Source: a virus (taxonomy: Duplodnaviria > Heunggongvirae > Uroviricota > Caudoviricetes). Taken from it: a stretch of 6,478 nucleotides of DNA. Each line of letters starts with the position of its first letter. The stretch's first letter is position 1. Under the pieces are notes generated by a model. The model was not told the origin of the DNA, ran no database searches, and saw nothing but the letters and a program-made list of their open reading frames with translations. The stretch is taken from IMG/VR virus record IMGVR_UViG_2534681912_000008; one strand, written 5' to 3'. A program made the translations under genes and the position numbers. Shown piece by piece: positions 1 through 6,276 of the stretch.

Positions 1-258
1 CGGGCTGTGGCGCTTATTGTTCGCCAGCAGCGGCTGAAATTAAGCCTGTCCGGAAGGCTGGCGATAAAGGTGATTGCAGAGCCACCGGATAAGCGCCGCC
101 GCGATCTGGACAATATCCTGAAGGCACCACTGGATGCGCTGACGCATGCCGGACTACTTATAGACGACGAGCAGTTTGATGAAATCAATATTGTGCGCGG
201 TCAGCTCGTTCCTGGTGGGCGGCTGGGGATAAAAATCACAGAACTGGAGTGCGCATGA
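1..258 (+). CDS. rusA: Holliday junction resolvase RusA, C-terminal ~85 codons (5' end lies upstream of the window)
   Basis: Frame 1 is open from base 1 to the TGA at 256-258. The translation (...PDKRRRDLDNILKAPLDALTHAGLLIDDEQF...GGRLGIKITELE) aligns with the C-terminal half of E. coli RusA, including the RRRDLDN acidic catalytic motif. The Met at position 7 is internal, not the start. Confidence 0.85.
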   Translation, partial: RAVALIVRQQRLKLSLSGRLAIKVIAEPPDKRRRDLDNILKAPLDALTHAGLLIDDEQFDEINIVRGQLVPGGRLGIKITELECA

Positions 259-944
259 ATAACCAGTATTTACAGTTTGTGCGTGAGCAGCTCATTATCG
301 CCACCGCTGATTTGAGTGGGGCAACAAAAGGTCAGCTTGAAGCCTGGCAGGAGAATGCCATGTTCGATACAGGGCGTTACAGGCGTAAAAAAATCCGGTA
401 CCGCGATGAAGTGACCGGAAAAATGATAACGCGGGATAATCCACCAATCCCGGGAAAACAATCGCTGGCGAAGGGGACGTCAATTCCTCTGGTCAGTCAG
501 GTTGCTTTTTCTACATCATCATGGCGGCGGGCTGTTTTGTCTCTTGAAGAACATCATAAAGCCTGGTTGTTGTGGTGTTACAGCGGAAATACTTGCTGGG
601 AGTATCAGATCGCGATAACGCAGTGGGCATGGACAGAATTTAAGACTCACTCTGGTACCAGGAAAATTGCAGGGAAGACACAGGAACGCCTGAAAAAATT
701 AATCTGGCTGGCTGCACAGGATGTCAGGAGATGGGTTATAGGACATGATATCTACCAGCAACAGGAGCTTGCCCGTCTGTGTGGGATTAAGCCTGACAAC
801 TGGAGCCACAATTATGTGAGCTACTGGCGTGAAATACTCGACATTTTTATGAACCTCGATACCGAATCTCTGATTTGCACTGTGAAAAGGAGATCTCAAC
901 AAAAAGCGGCATTTTTGCAGCGAGATATTGCAAAAGTCAATTAG
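255..944 (+). CDS. Putative late-gene antitermination protein Q (assignment mainly positional)
   Basis: A ~230-codon ORF lies immediately after rusA, and its stop at 942-944 overlaps the -35 of a strong promoter followed by an intrinsic terminator, the canonical Q-PR'-tR' arrangement. Likely start is the ATG at 255 (GGAG at 246-249, ATGA overlap with the rusA stop); the ORF track begins at the GTG at 249. No Q family motif was recognised unambiguously. Confidence 0.5.
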   Translation: MNNQYLQFVREQLIIATADLSGATKGQLEAWQENAMFDTGRYRRKKIRYRDEVTGKMITRDNPPIPGKQSLAKGTSIPLVSQVAFSTSSWRRAVLSLEEHHKAWLLWCYSGNTCWEYQIAITQWAWTEFKTHSGTRKIAGKTQERLKKLIWLAAQDVRRWVIGHDIYQQQELARLCGIKPDNWSHNYVSYWREILDIFMNLDTESLICTVKRRSQQKAAFLQRDIAKVN

Positions 945-976
945 ATAGCATATATTTTATGTAAATGTGATATATT
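928..976 (+). promoter_or_regulatory. PR'-like sigma70 late promoter with a second -10-like element just downstream (putative promoter-proximal pause/qut region)
   Basis: -35 TTGCAA at 928-933, a 17-bp spacer, and -10 TATATT at 951-956. A second TGaTATATT (extended -10-like) at 968-976 falls just downstream of the predicted start site, as expected for a sigma-dependent pause element used for Q loading. Confidence 0.5.
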
Positions 977-993
977 GCTGTAAAGTGTATAAA

Positions 994-1017
994 CCCGCTC
1001 AAATGTGCGGGTTTTTT
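994..1017 (+). terminator. tR'-like rho-independent terminator
   Basis: CCCGC at 994-998 pairs with GCGGG at 1007-1011 around an 8-nt loop, followed by TTTTTT at 1012-1017. It lies about 50 nt downstream of the predicted PR' start. Confidence 0.7.
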
Positions 1018-1090
1018 GCTTAACTCTGTGGACCTTTTTATCTGTAGTTGTAATATATGGATATTGTTACAATTTAGGTCGGTGAGCTTA

Positions 1091-1855
1091 ATGGAAGAAC
1101 AGCACGGTAATTACTTTATAAAACGAATTCAGTTGATTGGAAGAGGGGCATTTGGCTTTGTTGAACACGTTAAGGTTTACAACCTCAATAAAGGTGAATG
1201 CGGGGATTATGCTAGAAAGGTTTTAGCACCCGAAAAACCAGAGCTTTTGGCGCAAATAGAGCAGTTTAGAAGGCGTTTTAAAAGGGAGGTTGTGTATCAA
1301 TCACATTGCGTACATAGCAATATTGTTCCTATTTATTTGTGCGATTTGTTTGTTGAGAATCCATGGTTCATTATGGATAAAGCAGAATGTGATCTTGAGC
1401 ACGAAATAACGAACAACCTTCTTACAACAGATCAAAAAATTTCAATAGTGAAAATGGTATTAGATGGTGTAGCTTACATCCATGCCAAAGGCTATTTACA
1501 CAGAGATATAAAACCCTTTAATGTTTTGCGATTTAGCGACGGAACATACAAGGTGTCTGATTTTGGTCTGGTAAAAGATACGAATCCCGAAGGGGATACC
1601 ACTAAATTGACCGAGATCGGTACCCGTATGGGAAGTACAAGATATATGGCTCCCGAGATTTTATATAATGCAGAGTATTCAGTTAAGACTGATGTTTATG
1701 CTGTGGGACGGTTAATTGAAGACTTAAATTTAGATGATAAAAAAATAAAGCCTATCATAGCTAAGTGCACAAGGATGGATAAAGATGATAGATATCAGAC
1801 AATAGATGATGTGGCGTTTGATTTTGCGCATTCTTTTTTAAGGAGTGAGTCATGA
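1091..1855 (+). CDS. Hanks-type (eukaryotic-like) Ser/Thr protein kinase, catalytic domain only
   Basis: ATG at 1091 is preceded by GGTGAG at 1081-1086. The ~254-aa product carries the kinase subdomain motifs in order: Gly-rich loop IGRGAFGFV, the conserved Lys in YARKV, a Glu in FKREV, catalytic loop HRDIKPFN (Ser/Thr type), DFG in VSDFGL and APE in YMAPE. No transmembrane or sensor domain is evident. The TTG at 1016 used by the ORF track lies inside the terminator and is rejected as a start. Confidence 0.85.
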   Translation: MEEQHGNYFIKRIQLIGRGAFGFVEHVKVYNLNKGECGDYARKVLAPEKPELLAQIEQFRRRFKREVVYQSHCVHSNIVPIYLCDLFVENPWFIMDKAECDLEHEITNNLLTTDQKISIVKMVLDGVAYIHAKGYLHRDIKPFNVLRFSDGTYKVSDFGLVKDTNPEGDTTKLTEIGTRMGSTRYMAPEILYNAEYSVKTDVYAVGRLIEDLNLDDKKIKPIIAKCTRMDKDDRYQTIDDVAFDFAHSFLRSES

Positions 1856-2705: not shown

Positions 2706-3032
2706 GTGCAGTACGTTAAACACGCTTGTGGTTGTGAATGCCGACTGCGGCGGTATTTTGGCGTGACAGCGCAGGTGCCGTATACCGATGTCTGGACGCA
2801 TAAACCGGTGCAGTTCTATCCCGGGAAACATCCGTGCGAAAAACCGGCAGAAATGCTGCAGCAGATAATCAGCGCAAGCAGTCGTCCGGGAGACCTGGTT
2901 GCAGATTTTTTTATGGGCTCAGGTTCAACGGTAAAAGCGGCACTGGCGCTCGGGCGTCGTGCGATTGGCGTTGAACTGGAGACCGGACGTTTTGAGCAGA
3001 CAGTCAGGGAAGTTCAGGATTTAATCGTTTGA
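2706..3032 (+). pseudogene. 5'-truncated DNA methyltransferase remnant (N6-adenine/N4-cytosine MTase family, C-terminal AdoMet-binding part only)
   Basis: The translation HPCEKPAEMLQQIISASSRPGDLVADFFMGSGSTVKAALALGRRAIGVE matches the C-terminal HP..KP and D.F.GSG.T motif region of beta-class DNA MTases. Only ~44 codons lie upstream of it, with no DPPY-type catalytic motif. The ORF starts at a GTG directly after an in-frame stop, so the N-terminal domain is missing. Confidence 0.6.
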
Positions 3033-3081: not shown

Positions 3082-3157
3082 GGCCCTTTAGCTCAGTGGT
3101 GAGAGCGAGCGACTCATAATCGCCAGGTCGCTGGTTCAAATCCAGCAAGGGCCACCA
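3082..3157 (+). tRNA. ileZ: tRNA with CAT anticodon, most likely tRNA-Ile2 (lysidine type) rather than tRNA-Met
   Basis: Manual cloverleaf: acceptor GGCCCTT pairs with AAGGGCC; D arm GCTC/GAGC; anticodon loop CTCATAA with CAT at 3115-3117; T loop TTCAAAT; encoded CCA at 3155-3157. It is closely similar to E. coli ileX. The symbol is assigned by synteny with the Stx-phage ileZ-argN-argO cluster. Confidence 0.85.
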
Positions 3158-3164
3158 TCACATA

Positions 3165-3241
3165 CCGCCATTAGCTCATCAGGAAAGAGCGCCAGCCTTC
3201 GAAGCTGGTTGCGCGGAGTTCGGGTCCCCGAAGGCGGTCCA
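3165..3241 (+). tRNA. argN: tRNA-Arg (anticodon TCG), somewhat degenerate
   Basis: Perfect anticodon arm CCAGC-CTTCGAA-GCTGG with TCG at 3199-3201, D arm GCTC/GAGC and an encoded CCA at 3239-3241. The acceptor stem has an A-A mismatch, the T stem an A-C mismatch, and the T loop TTCGGGT has G where the invariant A58 is expected. Confidence 0.6.
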
Positions 3242-3254
3242 TTATCTGTATCCT

Positions 3255-3331
3255 GCGTTGTTAGCTCAGCCGGACAGAGCAATTGCCTTCTAAGCAATCG
3301 GTCACTGGTTCGAATCCAGTACAACGCGCCA
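3255..3331 (+). tRNA. argO: tRNA-Arg (anticodon TCT, decodes AGA/AGG)
   Basis: Canonical cloverleaf: acceptor GCGTTGT pairs with ACAACGC; anticodon arm ATTGC-CTTCTAA-GCAAT; T arm ACTGG-TTCGAAT-CCAGT; discriminator G and encoded CCA at 3329-3331. Confidence 0.9.
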
Positions 3332-3346
3332 CACTTATTTTCCCTG

Positions 3347-3370
3347 GCTCGCTTTTGCGGGCTTTTTTTT
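3347..3370 (+). terminator. Rho-independent terminator after the tRNA cluster
   Basis: GCTCGC at 3347-3352 pairs with GCGGGC at 3357-3362 (one G-U pair) around a TTTT loop, followed by T8 at 3363-3370. Confidence 0.6.
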
Positions 3371-3590
3371 AAATGTCTCACAATTCAGGCGGTTGACTGT
3401 TGTCTGGTTTGCGGGGAGTTTGTTAAAAGAAACTGGCATGGTGAATCCCCCTGTGCGGAGGGGCAATCAGCGAGTAGGTATATGGGATAATCGCGGATTC
3501 AGGTGCTGGTACTGAATTCACCGGGAGGCACCCGGCACCATGCAATGGCACATAGCGCCACTCTCCAGCCCCTCTCCGGAGGGGCTTTTC
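3371..3590 (+). repeat. Direct-repeat unit A (diverged paralogue of unit B), non-coding, ends in an intrinsic terminator
   Basis: Shares collinear blocks with 3832-4078: CTCACAATTCAG, GTTGAC, TTTGTTAAAA, GCATGGTGAATCCCCCTG.GCGGAGGGGC, TCACCGGGAGGCACCCGGCACCATG and AGCCCCTCTCCGGAGGGGCTTT. The segments between the blocks are divergent or differ by indels. Confidence 0.7.
3568..3590 (+). terminator. Rho-independent terminator at the end of repeat unit A
   Basis: GCCCCTC at 3568-3574 pairs perfectly with GAGGGGC at 3579-3585 around a TCCG loop, followed by TTTT. Confidence 0.65.
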
Positions 3591-3779
3591 TGTGCCGGAT
3601 ACATCACAGTTTCTGGAACCTTAGGTACTACAGTATCAGTCAGGGTGCTATATTTTCAGATGTGATGAAAGCCTGTCAGCAGGCAGGGCGTATCGGAAAT
3701 GACCCAGTAGAGAAAACGTTGACTCAGATACCGGTGCTGAGTTACCGGGAAACCGGCATCACATGACCGCTATCCTTCC

Positions 3780-3808
3780 AGGCCCATCCGCTCCGGTGGG
3801 CCTTTTTA
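3780..3808 (+). terminator. Strong rho-independent terminator in the unique segment between the repeat units
   Basis: AGGCCCA at 3780-3786 pairs with TGGGCCT at 3797-3803, with further inner CCG/CGG pairing, followed by TTTTT. Confidence 0.65.
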
Positions 3809-3831: not shown

Positions 3832-4078
3832 AAATGCTATGTTGCTCACAATTCAGTAAGTTGACAGTTGCCTGTCAGACTGGGCATTTGTTAAAAAAAT
3901 TTCGCATGGTGAATCCCCCTGAGCGGAGGGGCGACTGGTGACGGTATAATCTCTGATTATCAAAACGAGAATGACGCGGGTTTAGTGGCACCGGGCTGAA
4001 CTCACCGGGAGGCACCCGGCACCATGTGCATGATGATACAGATACGCGGCTTTAGCCCCTCTCCGGAGGGGCTTTCTT
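3832..4078 (+). repeat. Direct-repeat unit B (diverged paralogue of unit A), non-coding, ends in an intrinsic terminator
   Basis: Same ordered conserved blocks as unit A, with a perfect TTGACA at 3860-3865 and a perfect TATAAT at 3945-3950. It carries about 25 extra nt in the central divergent segment. Confidence 0.7.
4055..4078 (+). terminator. Rho-independent terminator at the end of repeat unit B
   Basis: GCCCCTC at 4055-4061 pairs with GAGGGGC at 4066-4072 around a TCCG loop, followed by a T-rich run (TTTCTTAT). Confidence 0.6.
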
Positions 4079-4084
4079 ATGGAC

Positions 4085-4113
4085 AAAAAAAGCCCGCGCT
4101 GGGAGACGCGGGC
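4085..4113 (-). terminator. Candidate minus-strand rho-independent terminator, convergent with the unit B terminator
   Basis: GCCCGCG at 4092-4098 pairs with CGCGGGC at 4107-4113 around an 8-nt loop. The A7 run at 4085-4091 on the + strand becomes a U-tract after the hairpin on the minus strand. Confidence 0.45.
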
Positions 4114-4182
4114 GGCAAGGAATAAACAATAAAACGTGAAGTAATATTTCAGCTGGCGAATAATACCCCATAGTAATCACTC

Positions 4183-4204
4183 TGCGCAACTGCGCGGTCT
4201 TTTT
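4183..4204 (+). terminator. Candidate weak intrinsic terminator upstream of nanS-p
   Basis: TGCGC at 4183-4187 pairs with GCGCG at 4192-4196 around a 4-nt loop, followed by a T-rich run at 4198-4204. Confidence 0.35.
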
Positions 4205-6160: not shown

Positions 6161-6244
6161 AAAGTGAGCCAGCCAAATGGAAGGTATCGTTAAACTCACC
6201 GGTAGTGTCAGTGGGTCGTCTGAGATGCCTGCATGAGTTATCAG

Positions 6245-6276
6245 AGCCATCAGTACTTAACTGGTGGCTTTTTTTA
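6245..6276 (+). terminator. Rho-independent terminator after nanS-p
   Basis: AGCCATCAG at 6245-6253 pairs with CTGGTGGCT at 6261-6269 (9 bp, one G-U pair) around a 7-nt loop, followed by T6. Confidence 0.7.

Follow-up and report, generated by a model that had tools for sequence, protein, structure and literature searches.

The Q–kinase junction

We analysed a 6,478-nucleotide (nt) stretch of DNA from a virus of the Caudoviricetes (IMG/VR record IMGVR_UViG_2534681912_000008), hereafter the window, around the junction between an antiterminator gene, Q, and a gene for a Ser/Thr protein kinase. The Q open reading frame spans 249..944, and its product matches Pfam PF06323 (Phage_antiter_Q) with E = 5.6e-84 and the whole length covered. 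It is 67% identical to the Q protein of phage 82 (X92588) in a full-length, gap-free alignment of 229 amino acids. PF06323 was the only family reported for it at E <= 0.01, with no lambda-family Q match, and no solved structure is related to it by sequence. Positions 926-1019 read gatATTGCAAaagtcaatTAGatagcaTATATTttatgtAAAtgTGaTATATTgctgtaaagtgtatAAACCCGCtcaaatgtGCGGGTTTtttgc and contain a promoter, a second -10-like element and a terminator, all three of which a preliminary description of this DNA had placed here. Positions from +1 onwards count from the predicted transcription start.

255..944, plus strand: Q antiterminator gene of the phage 82 family, 229 amino acids plus stop (the RefSeq ATG is equivalent to window position 255; Pfam PF06323)
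928..933, plus strand: PR' -35 hexamer TTGCAA, inside the last Q codons (consensus scan)
934..950, plus strand: promoter spacer of 17 bp, with the Q stop codon TAG at 942-944; expected place of the Q-binding element (QBE), by homology to 82
951..956, plus strand: PR' -10 hexamer TATATT (consensus scan)
963..965, plus strand: predicted transcription start A963, in an AAA run (collinearity with 82 pR')
968..976, plus strand: extended -10-like TGaTATATT (+6..+14), predicted sigma70-dependent pause-inducing element (sequence; homology to 82)
977..979, plus strand: discriminator-like triplet GCT (+15..+17), GCC in 82 (alignment to 82)
986..988, plus strand: predicted promoter-proximal pause site (+24..+26), placed from the 82 pause at +25/+26
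991..1017, plus strand: intrinsic terminator tR', with stem 991-1014, GC core 994-998/1007-1011 and U tract 1012-1017
963..1018, plus strand: predicted Q-independent leader RNA of ~55 nt (start by homology, plus terminator)

The promoter has 9/12 consensus matches and is the single plus-strand promoter-like site that the consensus scan reported in 926-1019. It had been described as near-consensus and overlapping the Q stop codon; the position is right, with the TAG inside the spacer, but 'near-consensus' is generous for nine matches. Just past the predicted start, on the non-template strand and 12-20 nt beyond the promoter -10, T968, G969 and a970 lead into TATATT at 971-976, which matches the -10 consensus at 5/6 positions. 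The terminator has a stem of 8 pairs, 5 of them G-C, with the core CCCGC/GCGGG, a loop of 8 nt and TTTTTT at 1012-1017. Its fold of -13.5 kcal/mol (z = -3.85) was equalled by none of 200 shuffles, and the terminators of relatives lie between -7 and -19 kcal/mol; the 'strong' terminator announced some 50 nt downstream is thus fairly named, without being exceptional.

We evaluated the combination against 3000 random windows from a first-order Markov model. A promoter with an extended -10, irrespective of a terminator, arose in ~1% of these. The composite of promoter, extended -10-like element with at least 5/6 matches at the right offset and terminator within 60 nt occurs once in the window and was seen in 1 of the 3000 random windows. 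The three elements together exceed what chance would give, which the promoter match by itself does not. Very probably, 928-1017 comprises the PR' promoter, Q-utilisation (qut) site and tR' terminator that would control the late genes of a lambdoid Escherichia coli prophage with a phage-82-family Q. Judged by its sequence, the switch is a phage 82 PR'/qut/tR' region in a compact form like that of 434, a known type and not a new one.

Homology to phage 82 pR'

The deposited phage 82 record stops at the Q stop codon, and 82 pR' was reconstructed from an E. coli prophage that matches phage 82 at 100% over the final 623 bases of Q. Past Q, this 82-type prophage reads ATTGCAAAACTGGATTAAAAAGCATATATTTCATATAAATCTGATATTTTGCCAATGTTGTACGCACTGGCAG... 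and has the layout TTGCAA-17-TATATT-TCATAT-AAATCTGATATTTTGCC. The layout of the window is TTGCAA-17-TATATT-TTATGT-AAATGTGATATATTGCT, with equal spacings, base for base in register with 82 pR'; the two are identical at 14/17 of the first transcribed bases and at 12/17 spacer positions. When the first A of AAATC in the 82-type prophage is numbered +1, TG falls at +6/7, TATTTT at +9-14, GCC at +15-17 and a U at +25, so that the reconstruction agrees with the published features of 82 pR' (PMC5001585). In that promoter the pause element is -10-like, nearer to consensus than that of lambda and of the extended -10 type; polymerase pauses at +25/26 with a 3'-terminal U, and mutation of GCC at +15-17 lowers the pause half-life 2- to 5-fold (PMC5001585). 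The 82 QBE is located between -35 and -10, and it is the sigma70-containing complex, paused at +25, that Q engages with help from NusA (PMC4914094). A literature search with the literal pause-element strings of 82, 434 and the window returned only unrelated papers.

Because 82 pR' is collinear with the window, and its GCC at +15-17 sets the first A of AAATCTGATATTTTGCC as +1, A963 is the predicted start, inside the range of 960-965 anticipated for the start. In the Salmonella prophage Gifsy-1, the mapped 74-nt RNA IsrJ begins within ~2-3 nt of the equivalent position. The 82-family Q and the collinearity with 82 pR' support the earlier reading of the region as a lambdoid Q-utilisation module with PR', sigma70-dependent pause and tR'. 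What has to change is the model system: the module is lambdoid, but phage 82 or 434, and not lambda PR', is the relevant comparison, with the element at +9..+14 and a pause expected near +25, not +16.

The opposite strand of the same region bears a promoter-like site at 911-940 (TTGACT at 940-935, an 18-bp spacer and AAAAAT at 916-911 preceded by TG) that overlaps the PR' spacer. At the equivalent spot on the minus strand, the annotators of phage 434 placed a CII-dependent antisense promoter, paQ (its -35), with a perfect CII box (TTGC-N6-TTGC); the equivalent of this box in the window is degenerate (TTGCAATATCTCGC).

Conservation across 82-type relatives

Megablast of 800-1200 against the phage collection gave no matches, and relatives were reached by blastn in its 'distant' mode and by protein search. 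The Q-protein searches yielded 80 viral contigs and 14 genome loci; together with phage 434, the 82-type prophage and Gifsy-1 these make 97 loci, from E. coli, Shigella, Citrobacter, Klebsiella, Raoultella, Buttiauxella, Siccibacter, Salmonella Gifsy-1 and phage 434, with Q proteins 52-100% identical to that of the window. The window and the 97 loci collapse to 36 unique sequences over -40..+35, and position counts were taken over the 35 unique sequences with identical geometry.

TTGCA at -35..-31 is present in 35/35, a conservation confounded with coding, as -35 to -19 also encodes the Q C terminus. In the promoter -10, T at -12 is kept in 33/35, A at -11 in 35/35 and T at -7 in 34/35, and each base of AAAT at +1..+4 in 33-35/35. 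The pause element holds T at +6 (34/35), G at +7 (35/35), A at +8 (34/35), T at +9 (35/35), A at +10 (35/35), T at +11 (34/35) and T at +14 (35/35), and its distance to the promoter -10 is identical in all 35. The triplet behind it is somewhat looser (+15 G 30/35, +16 C 28/35, +17 C 32/35; the window has T at +17), and -27..-24, -16, -13, -5, -4, +5, +12, +13 and +18..+22 vary freely. The pause element is therefore conserved at least as well as the promoter -10. Since the element is conserved and its spacing to the -10 is fixed, the two appear to form one coupled device and not two independent promoters.

A terminator follows the pause element in nearly all relatives, with stems of differing sequence (for example CCCGC/GCGGG, CTGCCG/CGGCAG, CCACCG/CGGTGG and GCCCGAGG/CCTTGGGC). 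The exception to the shared geometry is a pair of loci (L083/L084) with a 1-nt deletion in the spacing and a damaged terminator stem. An apparent extra copy of the module in another relative (L064:3005) was rejected as a spurious match. The sequence elements, their geometry, their conservation across the family and the homology to 82 pR' are all observed directly, and for annotation they mark where this prophage has its late promoter, its predicted start, its pause element and its first terminator.

A compact layout common to phage 434

In most relatives, the 82-type prophage included, an extra hairpin (about +14..+37) separates the pause element from the terminator, and the U tract falls at +64..+81. 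The arms of this hairpin vary by lineage with pairing kept (GCCGAU/GAUGGC, GCCAUUG/CAGUGGC, GUCG/CGAC). It is borne by loci L008-L047, L053-L095, L098 and L099 of our collection, and its 5' arm overlaps the pause-supporting GCC at +15-17. The window (976-990), the E24377A-type L048 group, a gut Enterobacteriaceae genome (L085) and phage 434 are without it; here the pause element runs straight into ...TGTATAAACCCGC... and the terminator, and the U tract lies at +47..+55. The terminated leader is accordingly ~55 nt in the window versus ~64-81 nt in most relatives.

Folding energy alone fails to separate the two layouts, with +12..+42 folding at -1.7 kcal/mol in the window, and at -2.4 to -13 kcal/mol in the leaders that we class as hairpin-bearing, of which Gifsy-1 IsrJ itself gives -2.4; the distance from +1 to the U tract does separate them (47-55 versus 64-81), and the missing segment appears as a gap in the alignment. 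The phage 434 record has a terminator annotated at the equivalent place. Given that phage 434 is a viable classical lambdoid phage with the same layout, the compact form is compatible with a working phage. This 55-nt form could serve as a minimal natural template for studies of how 82-type Q proteins load.

Proposed mechanism and alternatives

These data allow us to propose how the switch may work. For the window we infer, by analogy with phage 82, a transcription start, a pause, Q binding and read-through. Host RNA polymerase with sigma70 would start at about A963 from TTGCAA-17-TATATT. Retained in the early elongation complex, sigma70 would then rebind the non-template TGaTATATT at +6..+14, and polymerase would scrunch a few bases and pause at ~+24..+26 (986-988). 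Without Q, the complex would escape from the pause and terminate at the hairpin and U tract of 991-1017, releasing the leader of ~55 nt. With Q, supplied by the adjoining upstream gene and bound in the spacer at 934-950, the protein would load onto the paused complex and render polymerase termination-resistant, able to pass tR' and later terminator-like sites. Read-through would then transcribe the kinase/phosphatase pair, tRNAs, nanS-p and the lysis genes.

A number of features weigh against this account. Promoter-like sites as good as PR' are not enriched in the window (12 versus 9.2 +/- 3.2 expected), so that the promoter alone is no better than chance. Relative to 82, 5/17 spacer positions differ, and because the spacer overlaps Q coding, a QBE is not demonstrable from it. 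The base at +17, a position that matters for the 82 pause, is T in the window and C in 82. At the 82 pause end the window has G, with U on either side; the bases at +24/+25/+26 are U, G, U in the window and G, U, A in 82, in which +25G gave the shortest pause lifetime and is the least favourable 3' end (PMC5001585). The invariance among relatives partly reflects ancestry, since they share descent. Lastly, the 5' arm of the terminator hairpin starts only ~4 nt beyond the predicted pause, and we know of no experiment on Q action across so short an interval. From the differences in the triplet, at +25 and in the hexamer (GCT for GCC, G for U, TATATT for TATTTT), the pause could shift by a base or weaken, and its exact position may move one base relative to 82.

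Two other accounts of the same bases were weighed. Extended -10 promoters can work without a -35, and TGnTATATT is a good extended -10; 968-976 might then be a second, -35-independent promoter with a start near A983, and not, or not only, a pause signal. The consensus scan would have missed such a promoter, as no -35 is present. We consider tandem promoters very improbable, because independent promoters need no constraint on their spacing and that between 968-976 and the upstream -10 is fixed in 35/35 unique relatives. Moreover, the homologous 82 element is experimentally a sigma70-dependent pause signal (PMC5001585), and a start at ~983 would yield an RNA of ~35 nt, with little beyond the terminator.

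Many lambdoid prophages in E. coli are defective, and the module could instead be a non-working relic, left in a prophage that has been domesticated. Q might then fail to load, or the pause be too weak; the terminator would do no more than end the Q transcript, and the kinase cassette would be expressed by other means. The departures at +17 (T) and +25 (G) from 82 residues that support pausing fit such decay, and the kinase might have a start of its own from an extended -10-like TGtTACAAT at 1065-1073. This element was spotted by eye, and its TG is not kept in the E24377A-type relative. We regard a relic as highly unlikely nonetheless: Q is full length and gap-free against 82 Q, the region is identical in many genomes (30/50 matching genomes at >=99%), and holin, lysozyme, Rz-like and terminase genes lie downstream. 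The -10-like TATATT is also nearer to consensus than the TATTTT of 82. Where decay is seen, in L083/L084, the spacing is broken and the terminator degraded, and the window shows neither. A Q-dependent switch of the phage 82 type is accordingly the account we favour.

Prophage context and downstream genes

The window is E. coli prophage DNA. Its 800-1200 junction is present in 50/5426 complete E. coli genomes, with 30/50 matches at >=99% identity (VR50 and BEN2908 among them) and 19/50 at 90-95% (including E24377A); many genomes carry a region that is 100% identical. Host strains of the prophage include uropathogenic, avian-pathogenic and enterotoxigenic E. coli (VR50, BEN2908, E24377A). In VR50 the order is RusA, Q, Ser/Thr kinase, PP2C phosphatase, truncated methyltransferase, three tRNAs, SASA esterase (nanS-p), holin, lysozyme, Rz-like and terminase, and by RefSeq annotation the lysis and terminase genes downstream look intact. 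The gene next to the switch is:

1091..1855, plus strand: Ser/Thr protein kinase, presumed first Q-dependent gene past tR' (Pfam Pkinase E = 1.5e-33; RefSeq)

The consensus scan found no sigma70 promoter-like site on the plus strand between 957 and 1729. Further plus-strand terminator-like sites lie at 3346-3363, 3567-3586, 3780-3803, 4054-4073, 4182-4197 and 6243-6271, on both sides of the tRNAs, within two STnc100 copies and past nanS-p. To reach the lysis genes, polymerase would therefore plausibly have to resist termination. From the gene order and these many terminator-like sites it is a reasonable inference that the kinase/phosphatase, tRNA, nanS-p and lysis genes are Q-dependent, and the prediction is that Q switches on all of them together.

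The kinase and a PP2C phosphatase, whose stop and start overlap (1852-1855), occupy 1091-2595 as the first cargo past tR'. In other relatives the cargo found here is unrelated, so this is a variable 'moron' slot. The kinase 5' untranslated region has an inverted repeat, TTGTAATA / TGTTACAA, at 1048-1072; it ends 18 nt ahead of the start codon and overlaps TGtTACAAT. Between 1019 and 1095 the window and the E24377A type differ at only two positions, 1054 (T to G) and 1066 (G to C), which are paired in the repeat. The repeat folds no better than shuffles (z = -0.8 and -1.8) and could be an operator, an RNA hairpin or chance.

Further along, 2706-3032 encodes the C-terminal part of an N6/N4 DNA methyltransferase, covering only positions 134-219 of the PF01555 profile; RefSeq annotates it as a pseudogene without its N terminus. 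Three tRNA genes follow at 3082-3331, one with a CAT anticodon (Met by ARAGORN, tRNA-Ile in RefSeq), Arg-TCG and Arg-TCT; they are the ileZ-argN-argO-like set typical of lambdoid late regions. Between this cluster and nanS-p lie two copies of the Rfam small RNA family STnc100 (3407-3597 and 3875-4084; 136 and 165 bits). Both copies have an identical terminator hairpin, AGCCCCTCTCCGGAGGGGCT, at their end.

The predicted terminated leader and IsrJ

The leader predicted from A963 to tR', at ~55 nt, is in line with the short terminated RNA of about 50 nt that had been foreseen. Positions 963-1019 fold into a weak 5' A/U hairpin and the terminator hairpin (-15.9 kcal/mol, z = -3.15). The leader reached the gathering score of no Rfam family. 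We rejected the sub-threshold matches (Leu_leader 27 bits, isrK 13 bits and others), which the terminator seems to drive.

The preliminary description had suggested that the leader could be a small RNA, as in Stx phages. In those phages the PR' leader is made constitutively in lysogens, ends at tR' (258 nt) and is processed to the 74-nt Hfq-binding StxS, and short antitermination-regulated RNAs arise from the late promoters of lambda (6S RNA), 21, phi80, 82 and P22 (PMC7547250). The idea is plausible; as precedent, however, Salmonella IsrJ is closer than StxS, being a homologous 82-type leader. IsrJ is a 74-nt RNA mapped by primer extension, with a reported effect on invasion and effector translocation (Padalon-Brauch 2008; PMC2330248), and its transcription is high in lysogens under all conditions tested.

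The Q of Gifsy-1 is ~60% identical to that of the window, and the Rfam isrJ family (RF01393) matches there with 100.3 bits. Just 5' of and within isrJ, Gifsy-1 reads GATTGCAAAACTGGATTAAAACGGCTATATTTTATGTAAATCTGATATCGTCGCC..., which holds the last 82-type Q codons, the promoter and the pause element at equal spacing, in the pattern TTGCAAAACTGGATTAA-N-TATATT-N6-AAATCTGATAT. RF01393 also matches the leader that comes straight after Q in loci of Citrobacter, Raoultella, Klebsiella and Siccibacter (38-70 bits). This arrangement makes Salmonella IsrJ the terminated leader of an 82-type late promoter. We found no publication that links IsrJ to 82 pR', in a literature search that was incomplete. The link would explain the expression of IsrJ in lysogens, and it supports terminated PR' leaders as a general source of prophage small RNAs.

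In Gifsy-1 (L099, reverse complement of NC_010392) the isrJ and promoter site lies at 4015-4121, with the last 82-type Q codons ATTGCAAAACTGGATTAA, the -10 TATATT and the pause element TGATAT at standard spacing around isrJ; in L088, L089, L092 and L094 it lies at ~2206-2284. A cassette of isrK, c4-a1b1, C4 antisense RNA and an antirepressor gene stands between the present Q stop of Gifsy-1 (3178) and the isrJ promoter.

The window itself gave no isrJ match at the gathering threshold of 37 bits, and on 850-1150 there was none even at E <= 10. The small-RNA idea for its leader is plausible, without the support of family membership, because the terminator hairpin and six U of this leader are directly preceded by a stretch rich in A/U. 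Going further, the leader (963-1018) might be a stable, Hfq-binding, trans-acting small RNA with host or prophage targets of its own, and the gap of ~4 nt between pause site and terminator hairpin the shortest natural interval in which a Q protein has to make polymerase resistant to termination, a proposal that we think unlikely. Targets of its own are suggested by the lack of the IsrJ-type internal hairpin and by a single-stranded A/U-rich part that differs from IsrJ-type leaders. If this were so, the 'waste product' of a late promoter would be a lysogenic-conversion factor.

Comparison with known late promoters

The closest experimental model is phage 82 pR', studied in the Roberts and Hochschild laboratories. 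It has in common with the window the Q family, the -35 TTGCAA and -10 TATATT, the 17-bp spacer with the Q stop codon, 6 nt from the -10 to the AAA start, and an extended -10-like element at +6..+14, behind which come a triplet with G and C at +15 and +16 and an intrinsic terminator. The window differs in a Q only 67% identical, in 5/17 spacer positions, in the pause hexamer (TATATT for TATTTT) and in the triplet (GCT for GCC). Unlike 82-type leaders, its own is without the hairpin at ~+14..+37 and ends its U tract at ~+55 and not ~+78, and its cargo is a kinase/phosphatase pair where 82 has holin. Phage 434 (OL657226, with a Q82-like late region) shares the compact layout, with the pause element TGgTATGTT and a leader of ~54 nt. 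Its Q is nearer to 82 Q (89% identical), its -10 is TATACT and GTA stands in place of GCT at +15-17.

Lambda PR', with its 6S RNA and tR', resembles the window in its constitutive promoter, sigma70-dependent promoter-proximal pause, spacer QBE and terminated leader in lysogens. It differs in an unrelated Q family, a pause element at +1..+6, a pause at +16/17, no extended -10 and a leader of 194 nt; the window has its element at +9..+14 and a Q of PF06323, and so is not of the lambda type. StxS of Stx1 and Stx2a phages (Sy et al. 2020) is likewise a by-product of constitutive PR' transcription terminated at tR', made with another Q type and cut by RNase E from a 258-nt leader to 74 nt. With IsrJ the window has in common 10/11 of the first transcribed bases. 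The window leader lacks the internal hairpin and has another terminator, and the invasion and effector role of IsrJ is not transferable to it; what the two share is an 82-type origin, at a late promoter with its pause element at the same place.

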